DNA of 50,372 nt from an uncultured Methanosarcinales archaeon. Its GTDB lineage: Archaea > Nanobdellota > Nanobdellia > Woesearchaeales > GW2011-AR9. The notes under the pieces are model-generated. The model saw nothing but the letters and a program-made list of their open reading frames with translations, searched no databases and was not told the DNA's origin. The DNA lies in contig CAYHXT010000002.1 of NCBI GenBank assembly GCA_964360675.1, positions 1-50,372 of the forward strand. The letters are read 5' to 3'. Shown piece by piece: positions 12,535-49,965 of this stretch. The position numbers and the translations under genes are program-made. Within the stretch, counting starts at the first letter, position 1. Each line of letters starts with the position of its first letter.

Positions 12535-13305
12535 CTATCTCTTAAAATATTCCTTCGGGTCTCCCACTAACTGTTCCAATACTTTCACTAATTCGCCTTT
12601 TTCATCCCGTTCGTAGCTTCTATAAACTCCGACAATGCTCTGTTTTTCATTGATGAACGGGCCTTTGCTGGAAGGGTCGTAGTGAAAGAAAAACTCTTCC
12701 ATAAGCCCCTGCGACCCAAAATGAGTTACTTTACCTAAACCGGTATTTCCATAGGCGGTTCTTTTGATTTGGTAAGTGGCAGTATGGTCGTATGCTAACG
12801 GCATCTTAATCGCCAGCCGCGTTTTAACGCCAACGTGCCTAGGCAGCACACTACTGTCAGAAGAAAGGAAATCGTTTGGCACCATAGTATTAAGTGAAAC
12901 CTTTTCCTGTATAGGTGGATTGTTATTAAATTCGTATATTCTTGCAATTTTTTTGTTTACGCCATCATAAATGTGCGCCCCGTCATTGCCTTGCTCCAGC
13001 GATAAATAACGGAAGAAAGCTTCTTTATCTTTAACATCTTCAAAGTGCACATCTTCTAGGTTGTCTGTTATAATATCCCCTTCGCTTAGCCTATCTATAA
13101 GCGTAGTGCCGTTAGCGACAAGAAGAACTCCGGTGTAAAGCTCATTTTCTAGGCCGGGGTGAAGCTCATCTCTAACCAAGCGGCGTTCATCCAAAGCTTT
13201 TCCATGCAGATGCACTTTGCCGTCCTCCATATGCGGCAGACAGCGCTCTAAGTTTTCTTTGCAATGGTACTCTACTAGTAACGAGAATAAATCTAAATGT
13301 TTCAT
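12535..13305 (-). CDS. hypothetical protein
   Basis: 256-aa ORF with ordinary composition. It is the only long frame here and no motif was recognised. Confidence 0.5.
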   Translation of the reverse strand: MKHLDLFSLLVEYHCKENLERCLPHMEDGKVHLHGKALDERRLVRDELHPGLENELYTGVLLVANGTTLIDRLSEGDIITDNLEDVHFEDVKDKEAFFRYLSLEQGNDGAHIYDGVNKKIARIYEFNNNPPIQEKVSLNTMVPNDFLSSDSSVLPRHVGVKTRLAIKMPLAYDHTATYQIKRTAYGNTGLGKVTHFGSQGLMEEFFFHYDPSSKGPFINEKQSIVGVYRSYERDEKGELVKVLEQLVGDPKEYFKR

Positions 13306-29400: not shown

Positions 29401-32400
29401 GATCGGACAGGGCGCAGAAGGAATAGTTTATGCTCTTCCGGACGGTTCGGTCATAAAAGTTAAAAATACAGATAGCGCTATATCAATGCCTTTCCGGGAG
29501 CAGGCCAGAAGATTAAATGCGCTTTGCGAGAAAGGTTTAGCTCCCTGCGTTTCCAGAAGCGGAGAATATTTCTATCAGTCAGAAAGAGCCAGATATAACT
29601 CCGTACAGGATGCTGTTTTGGAGCGGTTGTCAGAAGAGGGCAGAAGGGAATATCTGGAAGTCTATGATTTACGCAGAGCAGACAGAATTACCGAAGATAA
29701 TTATATTGAATTAAGGGCCGCGGTGATCCAAAGGGCCAGAGATGAAGGAAGGCTGAATGATCTGGAACTTGCAGCCGACGATTTCTTTAATAGTTTGAAA
29801 GAATCAAACCTGGAAATCTTAGACCCTTCATGGAAGAATCTGCATTGCGCCAACGAAGAATGCACTAAATTCTTAACCATCGATGTTGGCTTTTCCGTCA
29901 CCGGCGAAAGGTCTAAAATTTTACTGGAAGGTGTGGCTGAAAATTATAAAAATAATCTGCTTAACGGAAAGGGCCAGATCATAGGCGGGGAGAGAGGCCA
30001 GGAATTGATTGATGAAGCTGCTGAAATCTTAAGACGGGAAAGAGATGCCGGAAAAGGAGCGCCTGCAGCCGGAGAAGCCGGCCAAATCCGCCCGTTGACA
30101 GAAGCAGAGATCCAAGATCCGCAAGAATTAGAGGCCTGGAATGAAATTGCCGCCGCCGCCAGATTTTCTGAAGAAAGATTGTCTCTTGAACAGGTGAACA
30201 GATTAGAAGACAACAGATTAAGTATTCCAGAAGATGATTTCTACGCAATAACATTTGATGTTCCTAAGAGTGCGCGCCAGTCGTTAGGCTTTGATGTAGG
30301 TGCGGTCATTAAAGTTCAGTCAGATACTCCGCCTCAGGGCGTGGCTCTGGTGACGGATGAAGCCGACATACTTTCCGATCTAAGCGAAGTTGCGGTACCG
30401 GTGCTGCTGAGGGATGACAGATATTATGTCGTGCAGAAATTTGAAGGTCTGCGCCTGGATGAGATGTCGGCAGATCTACGCGCCAAGATCAGGCCGCAGA
30501 TAGAATCTTTCCGGGAAGCGCTGGTCGCTAAAGGTTATGAAATGGATAATTATGGCGGACTTGTTTACGACTCTTTAAAACGTGAATTGAGATTAATCAA
30601 TCCGCGCGTGGTTAAAAAATCATCTCTGCCGCCGGATGAATTACGTGATTTGCACAACCAGAAAATAGATGACATTCTTAACCGGGGTGTTGTCACGCCG
30701 GAAGAGAAGGCAGAAGCGCTTGCTGAAGCGCGCAGAATATTGGAAGAAGAAGGAGCTTTCGCACGGCCGCCGGTTGAAAATGTTGTTGTTCCGCAAGAAG
30801 CTGCTGCCACAGATTTGGGTTCAGCAAATGCCGGCCAGAATGTCAAGATTCGTTCACGCGAAGACCTGTATGAAGGCAGTTTACTCAGTAAAGAAGGCGA
30901 TAATATTATCATTGAGACTACTGAACCTCGCGGCGGCATATTTGGAGCAATACTTCCTGACCGAAAAATACAGCAGCAGATCCCTCTTGAGGATGTTATT
31001 ATTTACGGAGAACAAGTACACATTCGTTCGGTTTCGAAGAGGGGCGTGAATAGGCAGGAACTAATCGGAGATGTCTACGTAGGAAATTATTTGGGAGAAA
31101 ACAATGCTTATCTCTACCTTAGTGTAAATGGAAAACCGACGAGGATTCATAAGGCCAATCTTGATCTTGGCAGTCTCGACAAAGCGATTGTTTCAGATCC
31201 GGCTTCTGAATTTATACTTAACCAGCAGAAGATCCTTGACCAAGTCAATAGAGTGCCGATCGTCGACGGGCGGCAGGTACTAATCGTCCATGTCGATCCA
31301 AACAGCCTGCGAATACAAGGTGTGGGCGCTGTTCCTTCGGAAGTGTCCGGCAACAGCGTTCCTGTACGCATGGTTATTGATGCTGAGACGGGACGGATCG
31401 CTGATGTCGTTGGCGAAGAGAGGATTGCGAAACAGTATCGTGGTGCTTTAGTAAACAAACCATTATACGAAGAATTAAGTATTGTAAGAAGAGATATTGT
31501 TAATGGTTGCGCCATTGCCGGCAGCGCCATCCATGGATTGGCTTTGCCTTGCGCGGATGTTGCTGTGGGGAGATTGGAAGCGGAAGTTCCGGTTCCGGTC
31601 GAATCAGGTGTCGGGATCACGGGGCCAACTTTAGATCCAGAATTAAGAAAATGGAAAGAAGGAGTTTCCGGGAATAATCTGGAAAACATTGTTGAGAGGG
31701 GAAAAACATTATCTCCCGGACAAGAGTTTCAGGTTGGAGAAGATATAGGGTTTAGTTTTATAACCAAAGATGGAGAGGCGGTAGAAGCTGTTGAACGATT
31801 GAAATATGGCCCCTCCGGATTTACTATTGAAGTAAGGAGAGCAGATAATAATGAATATATTGCTTCACATGACTATCAATTAATTATGGGTGGAGATAGG
31901 TTGGGAGTAGAATCAACTTATGTGGTTGAAAAATATCAAGAAGCGGGAATAAATCAAAGAATTTTCCAGCAGATGTCGGAAATTCATTCTAATGTTCCAG
32001 AAGTTGAAGCGAGTTTAGGATATGATAACAGATTGATCTATGGTAATTTCATCATAAATAACCCAGATGCAACAGCACTTGATGCTTTGAAACAAACACC
32101 AGCCCATAAAATCAGGGAAAGAACTGGCTGGGAAGTAGATCTTGAAAAATCTAATCTGCCTAATTCAATCGTGTATAAAAGAGCAGAAGTTGCTCCTGAA
32201 ATTTCGCCTATCAGAGAGTCCATTCCTCCAGAAGTATCCGGCGTAATGATAGTATCGCAAAAAGGAGAACTTTCTCAAATCGACGATGTGGGAATAAAAG
32301 AGTTGCCCGTAATCAATCTTGAAGAAGAACTGATCCCCGAAGAGGTGATAACTGTTAATAACGTTATTGCTGAAAGCGACGGGATAGTGGTTCGTTCGAA

Positions 32401-35400
32401 CAATAATCTTTATTTTATCAGCGACGAAGGAATTTATCCGGTGGGGATGGATAAGGAATATTCTTTCCGGCCAAAGAAAGCTGGAGGGCAAGTCAGCCTT
32501 CCTCCGGAACAGGAATCCGCATTGAAAACTATTTATGGACAAGTTAAGCTGAACCAAAGAGATGCTCAAGTATTAAATCAGCAGGACAAATTCGGTTTGC
32601 TTTTAATTGAAGCTGCTAAGGATAAAAAAATTCAAATCCAGACCGGCAGCGGGGCTTTAGATCATTTAATGATAAATTCTCACGGTTCCCATGATAATTA
32701 CCTGAAAGAATTGGATCGAGTAATTGAAAATAATGATAATCTCAAATATCTGCATGAGCAGTTCAGGCAGCAGGGTATCGAACCTCTTACCACCGTTAAA
32801 AATCCTTATCCTGATGAAAGATTGGACATTGCCGCAACATATAATCCAAGATATGAAGCTGTTGACGGTTCTTTTGTGGAAGGTTCATTTACCTATAGAA
32901 TTTTTGCGACAGAAGAAGAACTTTTAGATTATACTCGCAGGATCACCGGGCGCGAAATTGAGGATGTTGAAGAAGCTAAAAAATTAATCGCGGAAAGCCA
33001 GGTTAAAGGAGTAGCGGGACACGAAGCAGCTCATCATGCATTCTACAGGATGCTAGATGAAGAAGAAAGGATATTTTTTACGGACTATGTCTGGAGTACT
33101 GATGATGAAGCTCTGGTTAAAGCAAGGGAATTTATCGGATCTCGACCAGTTTATGCAAAAACTTCAGAAATATCAGAAGAATTATACCAAAGTATAATTG
33201 CCAATGAAGTTTTTGCATACAGATTAGATTTCAATATGCAGGGCATAGGCTTGCATAGTGATTTAAATGTCCTCCCCTCCGAAAGAGAATTAGCTATTTT
33301 TGAGCAGTTTGAGGTGCTGCCTCCTAAAGAAAAAAGAATCCCTGCTTTAGTCAATAACATTGCGCTTCAGCCGCCGCAATCATTCGCAGACATAACAGCA
33401 GAAGGGCAATGGTTTAGGGCAAGATTAAATGACGGAACTTCTGTCGAAGGCAGATTTTCCAGGATTGAAGGCGATGAAATAGTGTTCACAAGATATGAAC
33501 GAAGAGAAGGCCTGCTGAGCTGGTTTTTAGATGACAAAATTGAACCCGGAACCAGAATCAGCAGGAATGATTTTGAGCCGTCAAGTTTGATTGTTGGTGG
33601 AAGAACAAACGTGAGATTTTCAACCAGCAAGGGAACATTTTATGGTCGATATTCAGGAGACAGCCCGGACGGGATTAAAATACTTGATTCTTCTGGAAAT
33701 GAAATAATTGTTCCAAGAAAAGGATTAATCAAAGATTCTGTCGTTGCTCAGGGTGAAGTAATTGAAATTAAGGCTGTCGATAACGTTGCAGCATACAATG
33801 GCAGGTATCTGGCTGAAACGGACACAGAGATATATTTAGATGTCGATGGCAAGGTCACTAAACTAAGTAAAAACAATTTAGACTTAACTACACTGCAGAA
33901 GAAAGAATTTGCGGAAGAACTGGGCGTTCCTCCAGTTTCTGCGGAAGCAGGAGTTGGGTTGGGCGAACAGATTCTTGATGTTCTTCCCGCAGATTTCAAA
34001 CGCGAAACTTCTGCAGTTTACAAAAGCGAAGGTCTCTTTGAATTAAACGGTAAAATCTACCGCCGGGGCTCTGAGGGAAATTGGAAGCAGAAAAGAGAAG
34101 GATTCTGGAGTTTTCTCGGAGATAAAGATATCTCTGACGAAGAGTATTTTGATGTAGCGGAAGAATTAAACATCGCTGAATCAAATGCATTTCCGCAAAA
34201 AACAGCAGCAAAAGTTCCTTCTGAAACTTATTCTGCTCCGGAAGTTTTCACGGGGGGACAGATGGTTCCCGATAAAGAAATAGCTGAATTTTTTGATAAC
34301 GCCGATATCAATTGTCCGACCGGCGGAGCTTTAGTAGGACAAGCTGCTGCAGGACCCTGTAATTTTGAAATCAGCACCGGAAGAAAAAGATTATCCAACT
34401 TGAAGGAAGGCGATGAGGTTCGTCTGGTATCTTTAAGGGGGAATCATTATTACGGTGAATTTATATTTGCAGACGAGAATACTTTATTATTAAGGCTTCC
34501 GGATAGTACTCAAAATCAAATTAGGCTGGATAGGATTGATTTGAACAGCCTGGTTTCTCAGGATAATTTTGTCAGGATAATAAGAACTGATGGAACTTCA
34601 GCTTTTGGCAAATATGCCGGGGAAGGGGAAGAGTATATCCGGCTGATTGATGCCAATAGAAATATCATTCTTTTAGATAAAAATAATCTCCGATATGATT
34701 CGCTGGTATCGGCAGGCGATGAGATTGAAATGACTTCGCTCCGCGGCTCTTCAATCAAGGGCGTATTTTCTTCAGAGTCAGAAACGCATATTTTTTATCT
34801 TGACGAAAATGGTTTTCCCAGAAAAGCCGGCAAGGATCAGCTTGCGGATGTTAAAAGAATAATTTATGAACCCCTGGCTGCTGATGAGATAAGCAGTGAT
34901 TTTATTATTGATAATCAACAATTATTTGCCAAAAATCCTTCTTACGCTTTAGGGTTGGATGAACCTGCTTCAGAACCAATCGCTTATAAAAAAATAATGT
35001 TTTCCGATGGGATTAGAAGAGAAGTTCACTATTCATTAAATGACCTAAAAATTGCTGAAGATGTCGGGCTTATTTATGAAAATGTTCCTCCTGCGAGGCT
35101 TAAACGGGGGCAAGGATATACTTATGTGGTGTTGAATGATGGTTCTTTAGTCTTTGGCGAGGTTCATGATGGCCTGGAATTTGGTGTCAAGCATCTGCAT
35201 CTGGCTAACGGAAAGCCGGTCAAAGCGGCCGGTGAAATCTTTATCGATGAATCCGGAAGATATTTATTCAATCTGGAAAGCGGATCTTTCACTCTGGTAT
35301 TAAGGCGGGAATATCGTGTTAGTGAAGGATTATTAAGAGAACAAATGCATGATGTTTTCTATCGATATTTTGGTCAGGACGGAAATTATATCAAAGCTGT

Positions 35401-37561
35401 TATTAATAAGCCCGTTCGCCCTTCATTAGATGAATTAGCAGACCTTTGCTTTAAAAATCAAGGAATAAGGCTGCCTATCTGCGGAAGTAATAGAGATATT
35501 AAACAATTAATTGAAGAGAAGTATCCGGGCTGGGGTGTTTCTGAAGCAGTCGAACCATGCGCCGTCGCCGGCAAGGCCATTTTCGGATTGGCTCCATGTC
35601 TTAGCTCTTCCAGGAATATTATCGATTTAGATGAAGCTGAACCTATCCCTCTCGAAAGAATAATCTCCACAGAGAGAATTTCAGGGATTAAAGCAACACT
35701 TACCGATCCAACCAGTTTGATGGTGCCCGGAGAAGATGATTGGAACGATATGGTAACTATTATTAAAAAACATGAAAAAGAAACAGCTTTGTCGGAGTCA
35801 GACTTAGAAGAATTAATAGAAAATTCTGGCGGGTACATTGGTCGCGGTGCAGAAGGCGTAGTTCTTGCCGTTCCTGAAGAGGTAAGAGTTGCGCTGGGAA
35901 TCAACAAGCCGGCAGTGATAAAAATTAGAAATTATATTAAACCTACGGTCGAGGATGTTGCTAACACTTTCCCTGAGCAGGCAGAACTTCTAAACAGCAT
36001 GGCCGGCAAGGGGGTGGCGCCGGAAGTGTACAAGTCGGGAGAAAATTATTACATTGACGAGAAGTTGGAAGGCGAAACCATTCGAAACTTGATGTATAAG
36101 TCTTTAAGCCCAGAGCAGCTGAAAGCATACAAGCTAGCAAAGGATGATAAAGAAAAAAAACTTATACTTGCAACTGCTCTTTCACCAGAACAAAAAGCGC
36201 AGTTAAATATATTGCTGGATGAGCTTACCGATACCTTAGCTGAATCCGGAGTTGCCATTGATGATTTCCATGGGGGGAATGTAATGCTGGTGCAGACTCC
36301 AGAAGGGACTAAAGCAAAAGTTGTGGATTTGGGATATGCATATACCGACGATTCAGAAACTTTAAGAACGCTGTACGACATCAAGAAAAGAAAACTGATG
36401 GCTGCCGGGGGCTATGAAGCTGATGCAGAAAAACTTATAAAAATCAGGGTAACCCAAAGGCGCGCGGCAGAGAATACTATCGATTTCTCCAGCGATTTCC
36501 CTCTAGAAACGGAAGCTTTAGAAATTGCTGAGGTCAGGCAATTAAAAAGCGCATTACGGGCTATCAGTGTAGAAAATGAAAAAGTATTTTCATACATTGT
36601 CAGCGCTGGTGAAGGGCAGCGGGTGCGAAGGATATACGAGGCCAATTTAGATCCGCTTGGAGTAGCGCTGAAGCTTGACGCTGAAGGAGTATCTCATTCA
36701 GGGGAAGGAATTTTTGAATACCGTGGAAATAAATTTATCCGCGATCAGGAAGCCGGATGGGTAGAGAAGAGAAGGTTCTGGTTTGATAAAAAAGCTGATG
36801 CAGACACCGCCGAGCTGCTGGATGCTGAAAAATCAAGGCTGCTGGAAGAAGGGTTGTTTCCACTTCCTGAAGTTCGACTGGGATCCTGTCCCCGTGCAGG
36901 CGGCGCGATAGTCGGCGGCGCAGGACAAGTTCCCTGCATACCTTTTGGTTTATCCTTGGAAGAGGTAGTGATGAGATTGCCTCCTGCTGAACTTCCAAGG
37001 CCGCAAGTTGTTTCAAAAGTTGCCGGATATGATAATACGGTAAGTAATCTTTACGATAGCATAACTACTGAAAACGTTGAAGAAATCTTCCAAAATAAGC
37101 TGGAGCATCTTGGTACAGAAATCTACGGGGGAAAAGCGATTGCTTATATCCATGACGACGGAAGGGTGCAGGTAGTGTTCCTTACAGAAACGGAAAAGAC
37201 GCACCACCGCCAAGCTTTGGGAACGATTATCGGCGGGGAGAAAGGAAAATTAGTCTACGAAGGGCAATACGATAACTATTTGATTGGTGATCTAACTGAA
37301 AGGTCTTTCGGCTTTTCATTTCAATACGATAAATCTACTGGTAAAATAATCGGCATCCAGGCAAGTTCGCAGATATCTAATCTTCAAAAAAGCAAGGGCG
37401 CAACCGGATGGACGCTTCCTGAACCGGTGATTAGTTTTGTCGAACAGGAGATGCTGGAAAGGATAGATCTAGATTTAATCGACGAATTTTTAGTTGACAG
37501 CCCCATCAATGAATGGATCGACAAAAACAGACTGCCGGTTGCGGCTGCCGAAGCAAATTAG
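23417..37561 (+). CDS. giant secreted mosaic protein (4,714 aa)
   Basis: A single uninterrupted frame of 14,145 nt. Signal-like N-terminus (FLASFFIYLMVFSPFSIGQG). A beta-rich region is followed by about 1,000 aa that are A/E/K/Q-rich and coiled-coil-like. Two protein-kinase-like domains, an HExxH module, eight repeats of about 50 aa and five Cys-bracketed G/A loops are present. All antisense ORFs inside are short and low-complexity. Confidence 0.85.
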   Translation: MNNMKKKIDSAKIKRFLASFFIYLMVFSPFSIGQGESGAAVNQETNLPTEFPAENIQDVFENNPTPENFNKLPNPTAADLELVQNPTPENFNHLDSSEQGTYLSNEDNFRQDFAGEYYSDPANWGANPEADKILFAGTRFRDLLKAGTSQVSAAEQYFSDNFGAPYTLAIVADDFIFDQENRILKNGKTNLKLDDYTGDSTITEIKATADGFEISRKAEENEQVISVSGEEEKSVSYDSEKGTFAFQLPEGKPHTFNVPAAAKVKFAFDKDKITITGPASGIFESANDYVQFDNHAGILVINDNGNIEAENAEVITSLLYMDGRFVKTGSQIKAWDVGSGGKQTIVVDKNSCPVEGGCIGVSTLGQWDERLLAPKDKNRAGTLEINLDEIDSSSSFYVPSGEPQTNEQKTEQLRQQATELRKPREPPLSGKDAHVWIHKNQQSGEITVTSKGVVEVGLYDARGDAASPVKDDFRYKGVNGLSELDMQFGPRTQTNVRGQAELKNSEFRGGILTNQDGAVFKITNDNFGLTQNDIFRADCFDCQQGEAIVIQKSIAIAQKTSLAGIFSESKTENVKLVITVDENGRTSFKPDLTDLGYLASQVPKDNAQVSMGRNFFMSVPCGNFECNFKLTTDPRTGDPGAAYEIVDPLNPAQPLQRIDYPLTAGKMLGGEIIVVSQENVDNVNKLADLIESGNFNQLSELEFDENDPQYSALRKKILLETGINLDEISDPKYVSEINEIVTTAKRSRDNFRSLGIEVDANGNPLTLKDQQRMREILSKNGGAEFDLLTRAQLDLARTRIKEVAAQLSACQGDVYCSVKMDDLKKAQADAGKIQKQREGAYERWQAAERKAQLEKQINEARERQKSPDKGIDDIDKRESIDIGNKIVAANKQRTDLQRRVESSRENFVNFRDELRKNIEAELSTAQKIGIDWDKFRYDTDYVAAVLRDFRLTDAEFKVGFEDVKFYYDQYNQFTEESNSLDQNLKDWNSQQEALITKYRWEGKDDAAAEIALLSKQYGEANEIIQASPLLPPEVRINLGARAQQQITEESLNQVSILYNYGYGDQAGQMLLSLENAAPEIKESVEYQKAVKSQLKFAQGVVEEKIREEEQLRYREMMKRFDEKFSASVRFSKALKNINFNPSFEEYEEGVFGKQILEVIGSGFSATFQSSEEVGAEILGGLANRETLRTTTAKLDEQAAAEHNRQIENLYEIRNYLKAYDVRGSSAIQAFADAQSGISGEQVLISDDPTAAYLQFQLTGEVFSAEDKERLARMDNPLDRLAFTTQKEEEYSDTIKELEFNKLARDAENAIMFNRGKMAGEPEAKMREAISVCPECSGAENFQQRVNQLDESVTKEIFGETFGGAFEWAGVTYTQRTEEEFRDMAIASLDATILFDIAEIGLAPLAIIDAVNKVKFLKNAVKLKSFSKARYVERLEEAFGTAADVAIYASRESRAALDAAKAAQRSANTADAIVEARKSVDFTQRAIEAEVEAGLAAKKYTEVLRAGNPSDFDLEALILRNRGVNNIYDETKILNQAQRELDAAKKIGDVAAEQKALAAISQSQDTLQQAKAQINYYDNLLQASKIAGPEKGKIRQLWDNTFGQTIGVRNGLKFGSAGEEVIAAEKNFRVAAQIFNEAKINARLIGDTAEAAVSRARLARAEDTLLKAADEVDTAYLIRKGEIGRSVIKSRLQQARAASLSAKSDELLAAIDSEGITKLDNLLYNPVLRLVPDGAGLRFAVSEDASPALKQSAMEGNELLAKADEATLAEGAITSSARAEGEVELVLLEGLADSEFAIANEVKSKRIQAATGEFVLEEAPQRKIINNELVEPCNLAAAAIYGLAIPCVEPKGVTKTAEVPETPLSEESTRLAEEVAVVERATIPPPDIATLQKPTKEGLEHLIGEAKIGFKKYNAGRRQLGLEPDKSLDEFVKDYVGRDLQDAGIDAGLPDDLVGIGISKTGDEKVDAIIDVLEGRTSGELDAEELRKLEIAESLKIGQGAEGIVYALPDGSVIKVKNTDSAISMPFREQARRLNALCEKGLAPCVSRSGEYFYQSERARYNSVQDAVLERLSEEGRREYLEVYDLRRADRITEDNYIELRAAVIQRARDEGRLNDLELAADDFFNSLKESNLEILDPSWKNLHCANEECTKFLTIDVGFSVTGERSKILLEGVAENYKNNLLNGKGQIIGGERGQELIDEAAEILRRERDAGKGAPAAGEAGQIRPLTEAEIQDPQELEAWNEIAAAARFSEERLSLEQVNRLEDNRLSIPEDDFYAITFDVPKSARQSLGFDVGAVIKVQSDTPPQGVALVTDEADILSDLSEVAVPVLLRDDRYYVVQKFEGLRLDEMSADLRAKIRPQIESFREALVAKGYEMDNYGGLVYDSLKRELRLINPRVVKKSSLPPDELRDLHNQKIDDILNRGVVTPEEKAEALAEARRILEEEGAFARPPVENVVVPQEAAATDLGSANAGQNVKIRSREDLYEGSLLSKEGDNIIIETTEPRGGIFGAILPDRKIQQQIPLEDVIIYGEQVHIRSVSKRGVNRQELIGDVYVGNYLGENNAYLYLSVNGKPTRIHKANLDLGSLDKAIVSDPASEFILNQQKILDQVNRVPIVDGRQVLIVHVDPNSLRIQGVGAVPSEVSGNSVPVRMVIDAETGRIADVVGEERIAKQYRGALVNKPLYEELSIVRRDIVNGCAIAGSAIHGLALPCADVAVGRLEAEVPVPVESGVGITGPTLDPELRKWKEGVSGNNLENIVERGKTLSPGQEFQVGEDIGFSFITKDGEAVEAVERLKYGPSGFTIEVRRADNNEYIASHDYQLIMGGDRLGVESTYVVEKYQEAGINQRIFQQMSEIHSNVPEVEASLGYDNRLIYGNFIINNPDATALDALKQTPAHKIRERTGWEVDLEKSNLPNSIVYKRAEVAPEISPIRESIPPEVSGVMIVSQKGELSQIDDVGIKELPVINLEEELIPEEVITVNNVIAESDGIVVRSNNNLYFISDEGIYPVGMDKEYSFRPKKAGGQVSLPPEQESALKTIYGQVKLNQRDAQVLNQQDKFGLLLIEAAKDKKIQIQTGSGALDHLMINSHGSHDNYLKELDRVIENNDNLKYLHEQFRQQGIEPLTTVKNPYPDERLDIAATYNPRYEAVDGSFVEGSFTYRIFATEEELLDYTRRITGREIEDVEEAKKLIAESQVKGVAGHEAAHHAFYRMLDEEERIFFTDYVWSTDDEALVKAREFIGSRPVYAKTSEISEELYQSIIANEVFAYRLDFNMQGIGLHSDLNVLPSERELAIFEQFEVLPPKEKRIPALVNNIALQPPQSFADITAEGQWFRARLNDGTSVEGRFSRIEGDEIVFTRYERREGLLSWFLDDKIEPGTRISRNDFEPSSLIVGGRTNVRFSTSKGTFYGRYSGDSPDGIKILDSSGNEIIVPRKGLIKDSVVAQGEVIEIKAVDNVAAYNGRYLAETDTEIYLDVDGKVTKLSKNNLDLTTLQKKEFAEELGVPPVSAEAGVGLGEQILDVLPADFKRETSAVYKSEGLFELNGKIYRRGSEGNWKQKREGFWSFLGDKDISDEEYFDVAEELNIAESNAFPQKTAAKVPSETYSAPEVFTGGQMVPDKEIAEFFDNADINCPTGGALVGQAAAGPCNFEISTGRKRLSNLKEGDEVRLVSLRGNHYYGEFIFADENTLLLRLPDSTQNQIRLDRIDLNSLVSQDNFVRIIRTDGTSAFGKYAGEGEEYIRLIDANRNIILLDKNNLRYDSLVSAGDEIEMTSLRGSSIKGVFSSESETHIFYLDENGFPRKAGKDQLADVKRIIYEPLAADEISSDFIIDNQQLFAKNPSYALGLDEPASEPIAYKKIMFSDGIRREVHYSLNDLKIAEDVGLIYENVPPARLKRGQGYTYVVLNDGSLVFGEVHDGLEFGVKHLHLANGKPVKAAGEIFIDESGRYLFNLESGSFTLVLRREYRVSEGLLREQMHDVFYRYFGQDGNYIKAVINKPVRPSLDELADLCFKNQGIRLPICGSNRDIKQLIEEKYPGWGVSEAVEPCAVAGKAIFGLAPCLSSSRNIIDLDEAEPIPLERIISTERISGIKATLTDPTSLMVPGEDDWNDMVTIIKKHEKETALSESDLEELIENSGGYIGRGAEGVVLAVPEEVRVALGINKPAVIKIRNYIKPTVEDVANTFPEQAELLNSMAGKGVAPEVYKSGENYYIDEKLEGETIRNLMYKSLSPEQLKAYKLAKDDKEKKLILATALSPEQKAQLNILLDELTDTLAESGVAIDDFHGGNVMLVQTPEGTKAKVVDLGYAYTDDSETLRTLYDIKKRKLMAAGGYEADAEKLIKIRVTQRRAAENTIDFSSDFPLETEALEIAEVRQLKSALRAISVENEKVFSYIVSAGEGQRVRRIYEANLDPLGVALKLDAEGVSHSGEGIFEYRGNKFIRDQEAGWVEKRRFWFDKKADADTAELLDAEKSRLLEEGLFPLPEVRLGSCPRAGGAIVGGAGQVPCIPFGLSLEEVVMRLPPAELPRPQVVSKVAGYDNTVSNLYDSITTENVEEIFQNKLEHLGTEIYGGKAIAYIHDDGRVQVVFLTETEKTHHRQALGTIIGGEKGKLVYEGQYDNYLIGDLTERSFGFSFQYDKSTGKIIGIQASSQISNLQKSKGATGWTLPEPVISFVEQEMLERIDLDLIDEFLVDSPINEWIDKNRLPVAAAEAN
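29370..29990 (+). other. protein-kinase-like domain 1 inside the giant ORF
   Basis: Glycine loop IGQGAEG (29402-29422), VIKVK lysine (29456-29458), catalytic-loop-like DPSWKN (about 29822-29839) and Mg-binding-like IDVG (about 29878-29889). Confidence 0.55.
33020..33034 (+). other. HExxH zinc-metallopeptidase motif inside the giant ORF
   Basis: GVAGHEAAHHAFY, with H-E-A-A-H at codons 3202-3206. A possible third ligand Glu lies in IANEVFAY about 65 aa downstream. Confidence 0.5.
35790..36420 (+). other. protein-kinase-like domain 2 inside the giant ORF
   Basis: Glycine loop IGRGAEG (35837-35857), VIKIR lysine (35921-35923), DDFHGGN catalytic-loop-like segment (about 36260-36282) and VVDLGYA (about 36321-36341). 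Confidence 0.6.
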
Positions 37562-39133: not shown

Positions 39134-40186
39134 ATGAGCGCAAAAAAAGAGGTTTTAGCAGGAACTATTCGTATAAGCAAGGAATTGCAGCCGTATGAAA
39201 AGACCGCTGCTTCATGGAAGAAATCTAAAAAACTTTTCCCTGAAGCGATGCAGGTCGCCTGGTTATTTAAAGAACATAAGAATTTTAAAGTTCTCCTAGA
39301 CACTAAAAATCAGGAATTTCTTAAAGGGCAGCTGTCTCCCAAAGGGGAAGTGCAGGGGGCCAGGATCAACCAGCTGCCGAACGGAAAAATCATTGACAAG
39401 GCTTTTTCGCTGTTTGCCAAAGATTTAATCATCCACGACCAATACTCTGATGACCACTGGGATGTATTGTTTAAGAACAAAGGCGGAACGTATGCTTACT
39501 GCTATACCTTAGAAAAAAAAGAGCAAAACCGCAACCAGAAGTTCAAGAAAGTATGGGAGTTTGATAAAATCTACCGAAAACTTTCCAAAGCCGTATCTTT
39601 AGCGTTAAAAGATGCCGGCGATGGTCTTGCTCTGCCGATGTATACTTTATTGAAAACAAGGATGAGAATCGGCAATGAAATCTATTACCGCACTAACGGG
39701 CATAAAGGCCTGACCACTTTAAAGAAAAGAGATATTACCATCAATGGTGAAAAAGTTAAATTTGAATACATAGGAAAAGACGGGGTCCCCTATCGTGAAG
39801 AGCAAAAATTCTCCAGAACGTATGTCCGCCGGCTGCATAAACAACTCCAGCTGTTGAAACCTAATGATTTTGTATTTTCTTCCAAAAATGGAAAGCCTTT
39901 ACGCGATGAACAATTCAAAAAAGCATTTAAAAGATATTGCGGAAAAGAATTTTACCCGCATATCATACGTTCACACCATGCCACCAGAAGAGTAAAGGAG
40001 TTCTTGAAAAGGAAAAGGACTATCAGCAAGGAAGAGATGAAAACGCTGTTTTTTTCCCTGGCAGCAGATTTAGGGCATAAACGATTCGAAAAAAAAGGGG
40101 GGACTTGGGAAGATAATTATACCGTGACTTTAAACCATTACGTGGAGCCGGCGCTCGTGGAAAGAGTAAAGGCAAAAGTGAGCTGA
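39134..40186 (+). CDS. type IB DNA topoisomerase (small poxvirus/bacterial type)
   Basis: LLKTRMRIGNEIYYRTNGHKGLTTLKKRD matches the R.GN..Y...N...GLTTL block. This is followed by KFEYIGKDG (Lys), HIIRSHHAT (Arg), LGHKR (His) and LNHYVEP (catalytic Tyr), in the canonical order of the TopIB pentad. Confidence 0.75.
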   Translation: MSAKKEVLAGTIRISKELQPYEKTAASWKKSKKLFPEAMQVAWLFKEHKNFKVLLDTKNQEFLKGQLSPKGEVQGARINQLPNGKIIDKAFSLFAKDLIIHDQYSDDHWDVLFKNKGGTYAYCYTLEKKEQNRNQKFKKVWEFDKIYRKLSKAVSLALKDAGDGLALPMYTLLKTRMRIGNEIYYRTNGHKGLTTLKKRDITINGEKVKFEYIGKDGVPYREEQKFSRTYVRRLHKQLQLLKPNDFVFSSKNGKPLRDEQFKKAFKRYCGKEFYPHIIRSHHATRRVKEFLKRKRTISKEEMKTLFFSLAADLGHKRFEKKGGTWEDNYTVTLNHYVEPALVERVKAKVS

Positions 40187-44460: not shown

Positions 44461-44569
44461 AGCCCTCGGCGAGATTTGAACTCGCGACCTCGTCCTTTCT
44501 GTCACTCCGTTCTTGACTTTTCCGAACGGAAAGTACCAAGGACGCGCCCTACCGCTAGGCCACGAGGGC
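44461..44569 (-). tRNA. tRNA-Thr(GGU) with a 37-nt canonical intron
   Basis: Reverse complement: GCCCTCG-TG-GCCT/AGCGGTA/GGGC-G-CGTCC-TTGGTA-[37 nt, plus-strand 44497-44533]-A-GGACG-AGGTC-GCGAG-TTCAAAT-CTCGC-CGAGGGC-T. All four stems pair. Confidence 0.85.
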
Positions 44570-44575
44570 ATAAAG

Positions 44576-44708
44576 TGCGGGGGAGGAGATTTGAACTCCC
44601 GAACTCACTAAGAGACAGGATAACTTATGTTTTGCAACTTAAGTCCTGCGCATTTGGCCAGGCTTTGCTCTAAGGTTCTGTTAGATTTCTCTAACCAGAT
44701 ACCCCCGC
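44576..44708 (-). tRNA. tRNA-Leu(UAA) with two introns (D-arm region and 37/38)
   Basis: Reverse complement: GCGGGGG-TA-[about 31 nt, 44669-44699, with GTTAGA-GAAA-TCTAAC hairpin]-GCAAAGCCTGGCCAAATGCG-CAGGA-CTTAAG-[16 nt, 44622-44637]-A-TCCTG-long variable arm TCTCTTAGTGAGTTC-GGGAG-TTCAAAT-CTCCT-CCCCCGC-A. The mature length is about 86 nt, as expected for a class II tRNA. Confidence 0.75.
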
Positions 44709-44803
44709 ATGCCTAACCTACGCAGGTGTCTTTTAGTTTAGTAAGTTATAAGTCCTGAACAAGCCATTTATTTATAAACTCTTCTTTTGCGGCAGTGATT
44801 ACA

Positions 44804-44909
44804 AGAAAATTTCGCAGGGTCTAAAGCCCCGCTCGCACAGTGAAGAAACTACTTCACTGGCGTCCCAGAATTGCCGTGCAATTCTTAGGACTTTAGAGCG
44901 AAATTTTCT
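44804..44909. other. 106-nt perfect nested inverted-repeat element (three-way-junction fold; ncRNA or MITE-like)
   Basis: AGAAAATTTCGC (44804-15) pairs with GCGAAATTTTCT (44898-909), 12 bp. TCTAAAG (44820-26) pairs with CTTTAGA (44891-97). Two inner hairpins: CAGTGAAG (44838-45)/CTTCACTG (44852-59) and AGAATTGC (44867-74)/GCAATTCT (44878-85). None of the four helices has a mismatch. Confidence 0.5.
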
Positions 44910-44964
44910 GTTCAAGAAATAAGCAAACTTATTTCTGGACAGAAAGTCTTGACTTTCTTGTTCC

Positions 44965-45045
44965 AAAAATGTGCGATATAATTGCGAGCCGTAAAGCCTC
45001 GTCTTTTAAGACGAGGATAGGCTCGCATATACTTAGCACATTTTT
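44965..45045. other. 81-nt long hairpin element
   Basis: AAAAATGTGC (44965-74)/GCACATTTTT (45036-45), GCGAGCC (44984-90)/GGCTCGC (45020-26) and CCTCGTCTT (44997-45005)/AAGACGAGG (45008-16) form one coaxial rod. Confidence 0.5.
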
Positions 45046-45098
45046 GTTACCTCTACTGGCAGGACTTATAGCATTTTGACAATCTGCCAAATGATAAT

Positions 45099-45290
45099 TA
45101 TACCAAAAGACATAATAATCTATACAATTTGTTATGTCTTTCGTATACTAAAAGTGCGAAATATTCGAATAATTATTCACACTTTTGTATATACCAAAGT
45201 GATTATAAAATACGAATATTAATCACTTTGAGTATATATACAAATGGCGTAAATTTGTCTAAAAATTTACGTCATTTGATATAAGTTACA
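45099..45290. repeat. array of four hairpin units delimited by (G)TATA(TA)C boxes at about 44-46 bp spacing (locus 1)
   Basis: Boxes lie at about 45099, 45143, 45187, 45232 and 45278. Unit stems: AAAGACATAA/TTATGTCTTT, AAAAGTG/CACTTTT, CAAAGTGATTA/TAATCACTTTG, and AAATGGCGTAAATTT/AAATTTACGTCATTT (one G-T pair). Segments 45144-45194 and 45187-45234 recur identically at 49721-49771 and 49918-49965. Confidence 0.8.
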
Positions 45291-45326: not shown

Positions 45327-45950
45327 ATGACCAAAGTGCTTGTTTTTGATACTTTAGCAGAAGCAAAAAAAAATTTAGAGCAGTACCTGCAGCAGAATAA
45401 ATTAGTTAACGCGGGGATAAACGATGAATGTACTGCGCGCTTGCGCGTTTATAAAAACAGCGCTGACTTTTACAAACAGCATAAATTTTATGATGAGGAA
45501 TTGACGCAGGAAGAAGCGGAAGTGGTTTTTTCCCGGGCAGGAAAAGACCGCGTTTGGACTTTAATGCTGAAACTTTATGTTCAAGAACCAACAGATTATT
45601 ATGCTTTTGACGGCAATTTTTATGATTGGAATAGATCTTCCCACAGCGGAAACTATGGTCCAAGTTGTAATTCTATCACTTCCTTAATTAATGTTGTACA
45701 AAAAGAGATTCCTACAAAAAATACTCCCATCCTTGATGTAAAAACAATCCCTCTTTTCTATACGGTGCTGGAGATATTCAGTTACTCAACAGAAGAAATA
45801 AGAAAGATAAAAGAAGCCAATAGATACAAATATATGGGCACGGCAGAGAAGGAACATTTTAATCTAAGATTGCAGGAGTATAGAGAACGCGGCCTTACCG
45901 ATGCTGAGATACATGAATTTGTAACGAGATACGCAAGATTTCTTAATTAA
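45327..45950 (+). CDS. hypothetical protein
   Basis: 207-aa ORF with ordinary composition. No motif recognised. Confidence 0.5.
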   Translation: MTKVLVFDTLAEAKKNLEQYLQQNKLVNAGINDECTARLRVYKNSADFYKQHKFYDEELTQEEAEVVFSRAGKDRVWTLMLKLYVQEPTDYYAFDGNFYDWNRSSHSGNYGPSCNSITSLINVVQKEIPTKNTPILDVKTIPLFYTVLEIFSYSTEEIRKIKEANRYKYMGTAEKEHFNLRLQEYRERGLTDAEIHEFVTRYARFLN

Positions 45951-46041
45951 GTGTGTAAGTGATGGGTCAATTTGCTTTATGAAAGTCGAGTCGTAAGCGA
46001 CCAACAAATTTATATACGCCGTTCTCCTAGTTTCCTTAAAA

Positions 46042-46767
46042 ATGGTGTTAGATCTGCAAGCCACCCTTAATTTCATAACTGTACTTTTCGCTTTTCTATC
46101 AGCAGTTTTTGGCTTAATCGTGATAAATGCTTTATTTAAGAATAAACTTAAAATGCTTTTTTCCGATGAGAAATTCTTCATTTTTTTCTTCCTTATCGCC
46201 GGCTATGCCGTGTTTGCTTTGGGAGAACTGACCTGGTATTTAATCTACGTGGTTTTTGAAGCGGCTCCGACAGCAGGGATGCCTGATTTTTACTGGGTAA
46301 CGGGAGCTTTTTTCATGCTGATTTCCTTCACCGCTCTGAGCAGTATGCTTTATAGATCCTACGGCCAGATGCATCAGCTTCTTCCTTTGGTGGCGTTCGG
46401 TTCGCTCCTTCTTATTTTAGTATCCTTTTATGTTTATGCGGCCGGTTCGGGAGGCGCAGAAGATAGCAGCGTTTTCTTGAGGTATTTTTATCCGCTGACA
46501 ACCTCATTAATTTTAATTTCCTCAGCTAACTTGTTTTTATTTTATAGATATCTGGGGCCCATTGAAGTAAATCTAATGCCTCTTTTTTTTGCTAACATCG
46601 GTTTTCTCGGCGGAGATCTGCTGTATGCGTACTGGGGAGTTTCCGGTTTTCTCGGCATCCTTGCCCAGACTTTCTATATTTTAGCGTATGGACTAAGCGC
46701 TTTTACTTTCTTCACTCTTTTGGTGAAATTTTATCTGCATTCTTCCGGCAAGGAATTGTTGAGGTAG
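46042..46767 (+). CDS. polytopic membrane protein (about 7 TM helices)
   Basis: 241 aa with seven hydrophobic stretches of about 20 aa separated by short loops. No family motif recognised. Confidence 0.6.
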   Translation: MVLDLQATLNFITVLFAFLSAVFGLIVINALFKNKLKMLFSDEKFFIFFFLIAGYAVFALGELTWYLIYVVFEAAPTAGMPDFYWVTGAFFMLISFTALSSMLYRSYGQMHQLLPLVAFGSLLLILVSFYVYAAGSGGAEDSSVFLRYFYPLTTSLILISSANLFLFYRYLGPIEVNLMPLFFANIGFLGGDLLYAYWGVSGFLGILAQTFYILAYGLSAFTFFTLLVKFYLHSSGKELLR

Positions 46768-46938
46768 GTGTTGCATAGTGTTGCGACAAATAAAGCATCA
46801 TCGGTCGTGGAGGAAGCAGCAAAGCCAAAATTCAGGCGGGTAAGTTTTTGCTCCGCTGGTGACACTACTGCCAGGGGGTAAAATGCAGAAGTTTTATAAA
46901 CGGCAAGCGTTTCTAGGGGTTAAAAGTAGTGAAGAAAT

Positions 46939-47829
46939 ATGAAAAACGCACCTAACATCAATAGCGCACTTTTAACCCTCTTTATAGGCAGTTTTGCAAA
47001 TAATGCTATAGCTGAAGAGCCGAAACAACTGACGCCGGCAAAAGAGCTTAATACTGATTTGGTGGATAATATTCAAGAAAATGCTCTGGAAGAACCAGTG
47101 AGAAGAAATCTTTTATCTGCTGCCGTATCTTATACCACCAAAAATATGGCCGGCCAGCCGTATGAAAAAGGTGCGGAAGCTGAATTTGGCGCCGAGATAG
47201 CTTTGCCCATAAGCGAATCATTTTCGTTGCAGCAGGAATTAGGATTTTATGGCCAATGGCTTTCTTCATACGAAGACGGCGGATTTGAAAGGAGTAAAAA
47301 TGAATTGAGTTATAGGCCTAAATTGCGGTTTACTTTCGTGAACAATGATGATTTCCAAATATTTGCCGCGGCCGGATTAGGTTACCGAAGGCACCATGAA
47401 TCCATCTCTTTTGGTGACCTGGAAGGCTACGAAAAACATCTAGGTCTTGGCGCAAATATCGGTCTCGGCTTATACCACTACAATATTGATGCGGTCGTAA
47501 CCGGAAGCTGTTTGCTGGGTGAGAGGCAGTCCAGCTATGATTTCCGCAGGGGTTTAACCATGTGCGACCTGGATATAAGGCTTATTCCAAGATTCTGGAG
47601 ATTCAGTTTACCTTCGTCCGTACAGGTGTCAGAGAGAGTCTTAACAGAACATTCCGGTGTTTCCGGCCTGACCAAAAATCTGGTTTTATCCACGCAGCCG
47701 GGAATAGATGTTATTGATAATTTAAGATTATATCTGAATATGGAAATTAACCATAATTTGCCTGGCAGCAGGAATCGTTATGATGAATTTAAAATCGGCG
47801 GAGGCACGGCATTCATATGGGGCGAATAA
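46939..47829 (+). CDS. secreted protein with beta-barrel (OMP-like) sequence character
   Basis: Signal peptide ending AIA-EE. Repeated amphipathic, Gly/aromatic-rich strands (FQIFAAAGLGYRRH, LGLGANIGLGLYHY, IDAVVTGSCL). The C-terminal strand GGGTAFIW lies two residues before the stop. Confidence 0.4.
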   Translation: MKNAPNINSALLTLFIGSFANNAIAEEPKQLTPAKELNTDLVDNIQENALEEPVRRNLLSAAVSYTTKNMAGQPYEKGAEAEFGAEIALPISESFSLQQELGFYGQWLSSYEDGGFERSKNELSYRPKLRFTFVNNDDFQIFAAAGLGYRRHHESISFGDLEGYEKHLGLGANIGLGLYHYNIDAVVTGSCLLGERQSSYDFRRGLTMCDLDIRLIPRFWRFSLPSSVQVSERVLTEHSGVSGLTKNLVLSTQPGIDVIDNLRLYLNMEINHNLPGSRNRYDEFKIGGGTAFIWGE

Positions 47830-49466
47830 AAAATAGCTTGTTGGCCGTTTCGTCTATCGCCGCGCTAGGCTTGTCTTTAGGATGTGAATATATTCCTGAA
47901 GGAGTGCCATTATACGGCGAATGCAGCCGCCCAGTTAAGGAGATTAGGGATGAATTATTAAGATATAAAGAAGAAGAGCGCTGTGTTTCCACCGGCAAAG
48001 TCAGGGACTGCGGCAATCCAAATGATCTTTTTGTCATTTACGAAAATACGGCAGTGCAGGAGCATACCAGCTGCCTGGCAGACTTCATCACCGAGAGTTT
48101 TGCCGATAAAGGTCTGATCTATAATAAGAACGAAGATGCCGAACTGGTAATCGTGCCGGTTGAAGATTATCTTGACTATTCCACAAACGGAGGAGACGGG
48201 GTAACTCTGGGTGACGGCGTTACCATAGTCATTCCCAACTCTTTTCAGACAGATATATTTCATCAGATTGTCAATCATGAGATAGGGCATACTGTTGAAC
48301 CCGGAAAAGAAGAATTCCTGTCCCTTTTCCACGAAAATTATTCCTATTTTAAGACCTTCCAGCAAGATCCAGAATACGGCTCCCTCATGTTCATGGAGAT
48401 GTTCTATTACTGGCCGGAAGAAAAGAATTCCGACCTGACCCCTTATTATGGCATGTACTTCAAAGGATCGATATTATTTCCGGGCTTAGTGTTAAAACAT
48501 AACGGCAATATGGAAGCGGCAATGAATAAATTGGTGCATGCTGATGTATTAAAACTTGAAATCATGGTGGACGACCTATTGAAAGATCGGTCCGGGAATT
48601 TAGAAGACCAATATTACCTATCGTGGAAAGAGCTGCTGTCTTCAGAAAATTTTAGTTCAGAGCTGCAGTCTTACCTCAATGCCGATGAAGCTAAAGAATT
48701 ATTGGAATTTCTGAAAATAAGGAACTTGGAGATATACAGCAAAAATTTTGACAACAGCCATCCAAAGAGATTAGAACTATTTGAATCAGCCGAGGAATTC
48801 GCTTTAGACAACCGGTTCAGCAATCCCTTTTTCAAATCTTATTTTTCATTGATAGCTTCAACTCAACTGTTTCGTCAGCTCGCGAAAAAAAAGCCCGAAG
48901 ATTATAATGACCGATTTGCGCTTTCGGGCAGGATACTCGAATTGCTGGAAGCATATCCCTGCAGCGATAAAATAGGAGATTCTGAAACCTTCAACCCTTA
49001 CCGATGCCCTAAAGGATTAAGGAATCCGCTGCCGATCCACATCTATTCATATTTGGAACGGCTTTATTCGGTAATCCTGATGAAAGAAAATGACCCGGAA
49101 CTGAAAAAATCCCGGGCTAAAATTGCGGTGCAGGCAGTGTTGGATTATATCAATAGATTCTATCCGGGAGTAAACTTTGAGAAAGGCGACTTTGATGCGC
49201 TTAAGGTAGATATAGAAGCTACTGACAAGGAAACCAATGAAGACAGTTTAAGCTGGGCGCAGAGGACCAACAATATCCTGCCTTATCTGGCATATTTTTC
49301 AGCTCAGTGGGTTAATGATAAACACGAATCGGAACTTTTTTTAAAGGCCGCAGTGGCTGTCGAATGCCTGGACGAACATTTACATATGAATTCGGTGGAT
49401 ACACCATCCACCTGCAGGAATTTTCAGGAGAGAGCCAGAAAAAGACTTTATTCAATGAATCCCTGA
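47817..49466 (+). CDS. lipoprotein with HExxH zinc-metallopeptidase motif and helical C-terminal region
   Basis: Signal plus lipobox AALGLSLGC and QIVNHEIGHTVEP (HExxH). It overlaps the upstream gene by 13 nt. Confidence 0.6.
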   Translation: MGRIKNSLLAVSSIAALGLSLGCEYIPEGVPLYGECSRPVKEIRDELLRYKEEERCVSTGKVRDCGNPNDLFVIYENTAVQEHTSCLADFITESFADKGLIYNKNEDAELVIVPVEDYLDYSTNGGDGVTLGDGVTIVIPNSFQTDIFHQIVNHEIGHTVEPGKEEFLSLFHENYSYFKTFQQDPEYGSLMFMEMFYYWPEEKNSDLTPYYGMYFKGSILFPGLVLKHNGNMEAAMNKLVHADVLKLEIMVDDLLKDRSGNLEDQYYLSWKELLSSENFSSELQSYLNADEAKELLEFLKIRNLEIYSKNFDNSHPKRLELFESAEEFALDNRFSNPFFKSYFSLIASTQLFRQLAKKKPEDYNDRFALSGRILELLEAYPCSDKIGDSETFNPYRCPKGLRNPLPIHIYSYLERLYSVILMKENDPELKKSRAKIAVQAVLDYINRFYPGVNFEKGDFDALKVDIEATDKETNEDSLSWAQRTNNILPYLAYFSAQWVNDKHESELFLKAAVAVECLDEHLHMNSVDTPSTCRNFQERARKRLYSMNP

Positions 49467-49588: not shown

Positions 49589-49699
49589 ATGAAAGACATA
49601 GATACAGAATTTGAAGAATTTGTGCGCAAGCATCCTAAGCGTCTGACCGAAAATCAGCGCAAGATATGCGAGAAATTGGGGTTGGAGATGCCGAATTAA
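49589..49699 (+). CDS. 36-aa small ORF with strong Shine-Dalgarno sequence
   Basis: TAGGAGGTGG lies 6-8 nt before ATG 49589. It encodes MKDIDTEFEEFVRKHPKRLTENQRKICEKLGLEMPN, below the ORF-track length cutoff. It ends 21 nt before the repeat array. Confidence 0.35.
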   Translation: MKDIDTEFEEFVRKHPKRLTENQRKICEKLGLEMPN

Positions 49700-49720
49700 T
49701 ACGTTTGGTTCGTTCGGTTA

Positions 49721-49965
49721 TATACTAAAAGTGCGAAATATTCGAATAATTATTCACACTTTTGTATATACTAAAGGATTGAAATTTCCGAACACGAAAA
49801 CAGAACCTGATCAGTTTTCGGTTCCGGAATATGATAGTTTTCATATTCCGTGAACAAATTTTCCTCCTTTATATATACAAAGGCACTAATGATAAGTTTG
49901 AATATCCAATGCCTTTGGTATATACCAAAGTGATTATAAAATACGAATATTAATCACTTTGAGTA
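49721..49965. repeat. hairpin-unit array delimited by TATATAC boxes (locus 2), sharing two identical units with locus 1
   Basis: 49721-49771 is identical to 45144-45194 (51/51). 49918-49965 is identical to 45187-45234 (48/48). Both pairs have the same orientation. Between them lie extra hairpins: CGAAAAC/GTTTTCG, GGAATATGA/TCATATTCC and CAAAGGCA/TGCCTTTG. Confidence 0.85.

Follow-up and report, generated by a model that had tools for sequence, protein, structure and literature searches.

The window, by which we mean the whole 50,372-nt stretch of DNA analyzed here (source habitat, Hainich groundwater; ENA ERZ1292617), carries at two loci a series of short hairpins separated by TATATAC-like boxes. 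The question raised by these loci is whether the units form an array, iterons, promoters with small hairpin RNAs, or copies of a mobile element, all of which had been considered in a sequence-only reading of the same DNA. The window is archaeal, since it encodes ribosomal protein L15e, contains an intron-containing tRNA and has BRE/TATA promoters; the other genes read in it include those for a NurA-like protein, a eukaryote-type topoisomerase IB and a 4,714-aa protein. A Woesearchaeota/DPANN affiliation is probable, judged by the repeat family described below and not by a phylogeny. DPANN archaea have genomes of about 1 Mb and few recognized mobile elements. A Woesearchaea genome is ranked, in a passage of a MITE census (PMC11602168), among the archaea of highest MITE density.

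String comparison agreed with the earlier reading that 45144-45194 is identical to 49721-49771 over 51 nt and that 45187-45234 is identical to 49918-49965 over 48 nt; neither pair contains a mismatch, and both matches stop exactly at the 51-nt and 48-nt borders. All eight boxes that had been listed were present (45099, 45143, 45187, 45232, 45278, 49764, 49871 and 49918). TATATAC occurs 14 times in the window, compared to 3.5 +/- 1.9 expected (none of 100 shuffles reached 14), and 10 of the 14 lie within the two loci, while the junction palindrome CTTTnGTATATACnAAAG has four matches with up to 3 mismatches, compared to 0.4 expected. When folded against shuffles, the two regions gave z = -9.5 and -7.5, and each unit folds singly into a hairpin with the foot AAAG...CTTT and (TA)nC boxes as borders, as had been proposed. 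Since every hairpin foot is AAAG...CTTT, the junctions are themselves palindromic, and each forms an ~18-nt palindrome of the form CTTT-n-(G)TATATAC-n-AAAG (also written CTTT-n-GTATATAC-n-AAAG); the constant part, previously put at only about 8 nt, therefore includes the box as described but extends well beyond it.

Locus 1 (45099..45283, seen as a gap in the L148/L149 alignment described below) is a cluster of four tandem units in the layout (TATAC) u1 (GTATAC) A GTATATAC B GTATATATAC u4 (ATATA). Unit u1 (45099..45148) consists of a TATAC box, a hairpin with a 13-bp stem (45104-45143) and a GTATAC box. It is followed by the first copy of hairpin A (45144..45194, plus strand; hairpin 45150-45186), which is the left half of an A-B element, and by the first copy of hairpin B (45187..45234, plus strand; hairpin 45195-45230) with the central GTATATAC box ahead of it. 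Unit u4 (45233..45283) has a (TA)4C box, a hairpin with a 16-bp stem (45241-45278) and an ATATA end. Locus 2 (49719..49965, missing from the sister genomes and from L154) has the layout (TATATAC) A GTATATAC C ATATATAC D GTATATAC B (GTA), in which the second copies of hairpin A (49721..49771, plus strand; hairpin 49727-49763) and hairpin B (49918..49965, plus strand; hairpin 49926-49961) were recognized by string identity. Between them, unit C (49765..49878), a long composite hairpin (49773-49869) with inner hairpins nested in it, is placed within the central box of the A-B pair, and is followed by unit D (49872..49925; hairpin 49879-49917), the reverse complement of which resembles hairpin A. 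The units are 45-115 nt in size and none contains an ORF. No second copy of u1, C or D was found in the window or in the related loci examined, and u4 has a partial match alone elsewhere, AAAAATTTACGTCA being common to u4 and the hairpin family TATAGTAAGTGAC...GTCACTTACTATA; because of this, we infer the mobility of u1, u4, C and D from their design and position. Arrays of three or more units were found nowhere else in more than 1 Mb of related loci, so the four-unit pile-ups appear to be particular to the window.

The two loci were then compared with those of related strains. Five sister contigs (L148, GCA_964359915.1, and L149-L152) encode a 92%-identical homologue of the 549-aa protein encoded between the loci and share the gene order of the window from the topoisomerase IB gene to past a 77-aa gene, at a nucleotide identity of 81-91% (about 87%). 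Both clusters are missing from all five, and the clusters in the window are therefore insertions relative to the syntenic sister genomes. At locus 1, the alignment to L148 and L149 has a clean 183-nt gap with nearly identical flanks and a 2-nt TA ambiguity at its ends. The empty site in the sister reads GATAAT-TA-AGTTACAG, and the filled site in the window reads GATAAT-TA-TACC...183 nt...TTGA-TA-TA-AGTTACAG, such that there is one TA when the site is empty and a TA on both sides when it is filled. At locus 2, the 247-nt cluster is missing from the sister as well as from a third lineage (L154, 79% protein identity), and here a clean target duplication is unreadable because the flanks are more diverged. 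Locus 1 is thus the single clean empty site for target duplication in the window, with a TA fit also at the L176/L098 site. Since the element ends are TA repeats, a TA duplication and an element end are inseparable in such alignments; the TA count per junction ranges from 2 to 4, two of the locus 1 junctions are one TA off the simple model, and no duplication longer than TA was found in 20 or more aligned copies. With a single outgroup lineage, the polarity at locus 1 is best read as insertion in the window as opposed to precise deletion in the sister.

The same comparison bears on the DNA between the loci. The intervening 4.4 kb is present in the sisters, which lack the repeats, so this segment is ordinary conserved sequence and not cargo; the idea of a composite element carrying it was rejected, as its order is the same in sister genomes without the repeats. 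The duplication of A and B is recent, since the copies in the window are 100% identical, while the window and the sister genomes are about 13% apart.

Judged by alignment, units 2 and 3 (A and B) of locus 1 are a diverged copy of a ~95-nt A-B double hairpin of Woesearchaeota, with the plan (A)TATAC TAAAAG-(16-bp stem, loop CGAAC)-CTTTT GTATATAC AAAAG-(15-bp stem, loop GTTCG)-CTTTT AGTATA. The window A and B align position for position with the family profile (nhmmer, 75 bits). In order to find relatives, the 18-nt junction palindrome was scanned over one genome per species, which gave mainly lone chance matches, yet at least 13 loci in the Woesearchaeota MAG JAGVYH01; further loci were found in four other Woesearchaeota MAGs, one Nanoarchaeia MAG and two MAGs labelled otherwise. 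All palindrome loci in these MAGs contain the same ~95-nt double hairpin, in both orientations, and lone hairpins occur too in the relatives. A pattern with 21 specified bases matched 52 JGI metagenome stretches (64 element hits; 23 of the stretches from Ga0209211) and gave no match in IMG/VR. In the window's own genome, of which 50 kb is covered, two A-B copies are visible. The reading of the units as a REP/MITE-like family is thereby supported, since the family is multicopy and dispersed in related archaea and the clusters are missing from syntenic sisters, and the opposite expectation, namely that the units occur nowhere else and that the locus is invariant, fails on both counts, with A-B in many MAGs and the sister loci empty.

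The hairpins themselves are conserved. Both stems are 93.9% paired over 22 aligned copies (slid controls, at most 52%), and double compensatory changes were found in 13 of 31 stem pairs; none of 500 shuffles reached these values. There are almost no G-U pairs in the stems, so the complementarity is valid for either strand. Between A and B, the foot triplets covary (GTG/CAC, GCA/TGC, GTC/GAC), the loop of A is the reverse complement of the loop of B, and the ends TATACTAAAAGYR and YRCTTTTAGTATA are kept over all 22 copies. Copies of 95 nt that are 100% identical were found across two species-level MAGs (L087 versus L077 and L145). None of 56 non-redundant A-B copies lies within an ORF; the tandem, convergent and divergent gene contexts number 27, 10 and 9, compared to a background of 139, 41 and 51, and relative to the neighbouring genes 14 copies have the same and 13 the opposite orientation. 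In some relatives, genes start 4-22 nt from the element end, so the promoter of these genes must be part of the element itself; an example from L108 is the topoisomerase gene, with a AAAATTTA motif ~30 nt upstream of its ATG.

Overall, these results make it probable that the units are non-autonomous, non-coding palindromic elements of the MITE/REP kind, with TA as the insertion site and a preference for TA-rich junctions left by earlier copies. Each unit would be a hairpin with the inverted termini TA(TA)C-n-AAAG...CTTT-n-G(TA)TA. After the sister lineage had branched off, the A-B element would have been copied into two TA sites separated by 4.6 kb, and later units would then have entered the (TA)n junctions of the earlier copies, at the flanks in locus 1 and at the central GTATATAC in locus 2. 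Every insertion would restore a GTA-TA-TAC junction, and the array-like box periodicity of ~45 bp would arise because hairpins of ~37 nt insert in tandem or nested and restore the junctions as they do so. If TA duplication is the rule, as the sites described above suggest, the elements may be moved in trans by a cut-and-paste transposase of the DDE class (IS630/Tc1 or IS5 type). As a side effect, the copies may start or stop transcription locally, given the T4 runs on both strands and the AT-rich arms.

Three insertions at palindrome centres were observed. At locus 2, C and D split the otherwise invariant A-GTATATAC-B order and have the box on both sides, which would be the outcome of insertion into the central TA tract if the units end in TAC...GTA and duplicate TA. 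The second case is a ~200-nt palindromic repeat (GTATGTGCATAGCTCT...AGAGCTATGCACATAC) with four copies in Rifle Woesearchaeota (L098 3451-3678, L077 6182-6412, L176 4584-4771 and L161 2844-3031), in which the apex holds a hairpin unit in L098 and L077 (different units, same position) and the copies in L176 and L161 are without a unit and have TA at the empty position. The third lies next to locus 1, where a hairpin-rich insertion of 248 nt (X, 44803..45050), which belongs to a separate family and is missing from the sister genomes, lies enclosed by an older hairpin, TATAAGTCCTG...CAGGACTTATA (44747..45070; arms 44747-44757 and 45060-45070), whose loop it occupies and that is kept in the sister (L148 7252-7327). 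X is flanked on either side by TTAC (44799-44802 and 45047-45050) and has a folding z of -11.8; its one further copy in the sequences examined is a 50-nt short form with the same ends (TTAC followed by AAGAAAAT...GCACATTTTTGTTAC) at another site (L148 ~12864-12912). More TATA-flanked hairpin families adjoin one another in the relatives (TATAGTAAGTGAC...GTCACTTACTATA and TGTCGGACATAA...TTATGTCCGA), and u4 has at least 14 nt in common with the first of these.

The search for the enzyme covered the window and the surroundings of the copies. No transposase was found in the window (Pfam, 30 ORFs), among the best 25 of 137 Pfam families in 112 ORFs around the MAG copies, or in 155 ORFs of the Ga0209211 loci, and neither the window, nor the surroundings of ~100 copies, nor a search for lone termini yielded a transposase or an autonomous element whose ends match. 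Multicopy ORFs near the copies were considered as transposases and rejected, as they encode PEP-utiliser-domain proteins and HEPN/MNT pairs; lone termini around a 1.9-kb gene in L131 proved to be chance matches flanking an ELP3 gene. A plain TIR-binding transposase needs no compensatory changes, which hints that the hairpin itself matters, be it as single-stranded DNA, cruciform or RNA. On this basis, an improbable alternative is an archaeal counterpart of REP/BIME in which a structure-specific enzyme, perhaps non-homologous to known transposases, recognizes hairpins once extruded and makes its insertions where existing palindromes are TA-rich, at their apex or centre; such an enzyme would account for the Watson-Crick covariation, the conserved loop and the three palindrome-centre insertions. 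Candidates are a tyrosine-recombinase/topoisomerase-IB-like enzyme or one supplied by the host. The window does encode a topoisomerase IB of the eukaryote/poxvirus type (39134-40186, plus strand; Pfam Topoisom_I 2.5e-15, Phage_integrase weak), which is kept in the sister genome, and any connection of this gene to the hairpins is speculative.

The comparison with bacterial hairpin repeats leads to a related alternative. REP, BIME and REPIN sequences of bacteria, which are mobilized by RAYT, are imperfect palindromes of 20-40 nt whose stems change in a compensatory manner; they are strictly extragenic and occur singly, as inverted doublets or in clusters with short linkers. The window family is likewise extragenic, with compensatory stems and inverted doublets, and the units could be of the REP/REPIN or IS200/IS605 type, in which a Y1 (HUH) transposase (RAYT or TnpA) takes single-stranded hairpins by peel-and-paste and the clusters are archaeal BIMEs. 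In keeping with this, the stems are maintained by compensatory change, the feet and the loop (TCGAAC) are conserved, the reverse-complementary loops of A and B give a REPIN-like inverted doublet, and the units are REP-sized and clustered with short linkers; in addition, a DDE transposase was not found in the ORFs scanned, and the neighbouring insertion X is IS608-like, with TTAC on both sides and subterminal hairpins. However, zero Y1 transposase domains were found in the ORFs scanned, and neither the RAYT gene nor any other gene for the Y1/HUH transposase to which the sequence-only reading had tentatively assigned the ends was found in the window and ~0.6 Mb. The empty site of locus 1 is without TATAC, and hence the box arrives with the element and is not a pre-existing target; TA appears to be duplicated there, whereas Y1 elements make no duplication, which speaks against peel-and-paste. 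The GTAG 5' tetranucleotide at the head of REPs is also missing, the head here being TATAC-n-AAAAG, and the host is archaeal, whereas RAYTs are, to our knowledge, a bacterial family. We consider a Y1-driven origin doubtful.

Among IS200/IS605 derivatives, PATEs, which like the A-B element are short, non-coding and built of two hairpins, have these subterminal hairpins in the same orientation on one strand and insert 3' of a pre-existing tetra- or pentanucleotide without duplication. The A-B element differs in each of the latter respects, since the loops of A and B are mutually inverted, TATAC is missing from the empty site and TA appears to be duplicated. X, which is flanked by TTAC, fits the PATE type better than the A-B units do, and resembles PATEs in its TTAC target and subterminal hairpins.

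It was also considered whether the units are selected cis-regulatory modules or sRNA genes (bidirectional terminators, insulators, outward promoters or hairpin sRNAs) whose spread is incidental. Covariation keeps the hairpins, T4 runs stand beside each stem on both strands, the 95-nt copies are 100% identical between species-level MAGs, and several genes begin 4-22 nt from an element end, all of which could be expected of such modules. However, the sisters do without the clusters and have the same neighbour genes intact; gene ends, gene starts and orientation are all unbiased compared to background; and the near-zero G-U content makes the pairing equal on both strands, which is DNA-like and not what a stranded RNA would show. 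The host promoters read AAAnTTTATAWA at about -30 from the ATG, with TTTAWA-type boxes at -24 to -50 in 15 of 30 window genes and an A-rich stretch mostly ahead. The boxes of the units, in contrast, are CTTTTGTATATAC on both strands without an A-rich BRE and differ from this consensus; no A-rich BRE followed by TTTAWATA, 25-35 nt upstream of a start, was found for them, and the earlier suggestion of promoters with hairpin RNAs is not borne out. Rfam searches of the window and of the consensus-like L098 copy (gathering score, E<=5) returned tRNA alone, with no family match for the units; the hairpins gave sub-threshold miRNA-like noise with Rfam 15, and scans for sigma-70 promoters and intrinsic terminators were equal to shuffles at best. 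Since the sisters lack the clusters, the context is unbiased and the boxes are off the host consensus, the elements are unlikely to serve primarily as promoters, terminators or sRNA genes; secondary effects of the hairpins on transcription are plausible.

The remaining two explanations fared worse. An assembly artefact, or local palindrome instability by fold-back and slippage without a mobile family, might be suspected because other contigs start close by, within the repeat-rich region (L001 at 44784, L002 at 44996), because the window and L001 both end at 50372, and because u1, u4, C and D are single-copy. However, in L001 and L002, which come from other samples (ERZ1292617/8), the clusters are base-identical to those of the window; since both clusters thus have one and the same sequence in three independent assemblies, and since the family of A and B spans many genomes and metagenomes, the artefact that had been named as a possible refutation is very improbable. 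The regular ~45-bp box spacing and an AT-rich region adjoining tRNA genes could be cited for iterons, for an origin of replication or for a degenerate array of the CRISPR type. These readings are scarcely credible, since a genome of the ~1-Mb class has the same element at 13 or more loci, dispersed over all intergenic contexts; what would be 'spacers' are palindromic and have copies elsewhere; the constant part, also a palindrome, measures 8-18 nt; no cas, orc/cdc6 or rep genes were found nearby; sister genomes are without the clusters; and the features that define a CRISPR (direct repeats identical over ~23 nt or more, spacers that are unique and non-palindromic, a leader and cas) are lacking.

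The preferred reading, that of short non-autonomous elements inserting at TA, can be set beside known MITEs. The elements are shorter than ~500 bp, non-coding, bounded by TIRs, dispersed in multiple copies and present or absent at orthologous sites, as is expected of MITEs; a parent IS or transposase with the same ends was not found in the window, the 112 + 155 ORFs or a lone-terminus search. The closest analogues are the Correia elements (CREE/NEMIS) of Neisseria, the REP/BIME clusters of bacteria and the SM MITEs of Sulfolobus. Correia elements, and bacterial MITEs comparable to them (RUP and ERIC among these), are non-coding, ~100-150 bp long and have TIRs that start with TATAG. Correia-type MITEs duplicate a TA target, are intergenic and hairpin-folding, and in some cases bear promoters directed outward or terminators; a cognate transposase is not known from their genomes. 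The window elements are alike in being short and non-coding, with TIRs, apparent TA insertion, intergenic dispersal and a hairpin fold. Unlike Correia elements, they occur in a DPANN host, comprise units down to ~45 bp (a single near-perfect hairpin) with the inverted doublet as the usual form, and stack in each other's TA junctions, and the sequences are dissimilar. The Sulfolobus SM MITEs, also archaeal, non-autonomous and bounded by TIRs, are 80-190 bp long; some of them target TA, and they have an identifiable parent IS. Redder, She and Garrett reportedly described them in 2001 as SM1-SM4, with SM1 linked to an IS630-family IS with a TA target. The window elements differ in being simple hairpin units, and a parent IS was not found in the loci searched.

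We found no published description of the A-B family. It is selfish DNA of a familiar kind and not a new system; its unusual traits are the ~45-bp units, the inverted-doublet form and the stacking at palindrome centres. The finding opens no long-standing question. The lineage bears several ultra-short hairpin repeat families that are still moving between closely related populations. In uncultured groundwater archaea, such elements are markers of recent changes in the genome. The hairpins seem to interrupt short-read assemblies, and contigs end near the clusters. The elements may lend terminators or promoters to adjoining genes, and the conserved A-B element might be used to mark the Woesearchaeales lineage.

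Several features of the host DNA were noted. Upstream of the loci, an intron-containing tRNA lies on the minus strand (44461-44569; Rfam, 55 bits); ARAGORN gave no tRNA in the whole window. At its ends, the adjacent stretch 44573-44708 (minus strand) resembles the acceptor and T arm of a tRNA (GCGGGGG...GGGAGTTCAAATCTCCTCCCCCGC), and it looks to be a second tRNA, interrupted by at least one non-canonical intron. Both stretches are kept in the sister genome. The 4,714-aa protein is encoded by a giant ORF (23417-37561, plus strand), and giant proteins are common in DPANN archaea. The DNA between the two loci holds four genes in a row, of 207, 241, 296 and 549 aa (45327-49466, plus strand), none of which had a Pfam or PHROG match. 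The four genes form a cassette restricted to the lineage, since a set of 5.8 billion proteins holds just two clusters homologous to the 549-aa protein (at 92% and 79% identity). A phage or provirus origin was considered and rejected, with zero megablast matches of 40-50.4 kb to phages and none or lone chance matches in two IMG/VR scans. Ahead of locus 2, a 36-aa ORF (MKDIDTEFEEFVRKHPKRLTENQRKICEKLGLEMPN; 49590-49700, plus strand) has a GGAGGTG ribosome-binding site and a TTTATAAA box, and it is probably a real small protein, since it is conserved and gene-called in L148, L152 and L154.

Two gene families were observed in the relatives. In one Woesearchaeota population, five paralogous proteins of 400-590 aa have a PEP-utiliser mobile domain at the C-terminus only, and their N-terminal parts are unannotated (L157 5162-6703, L161 4395-6170, L168 9575-10780, L175 8031-9626 and L182 3252-4703). 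In JAGVYH01, five tandem paralogues with 27-58% identity (L081 1394-7841) have an A-B element between the last two, and these paralogues are a gene family expansion.
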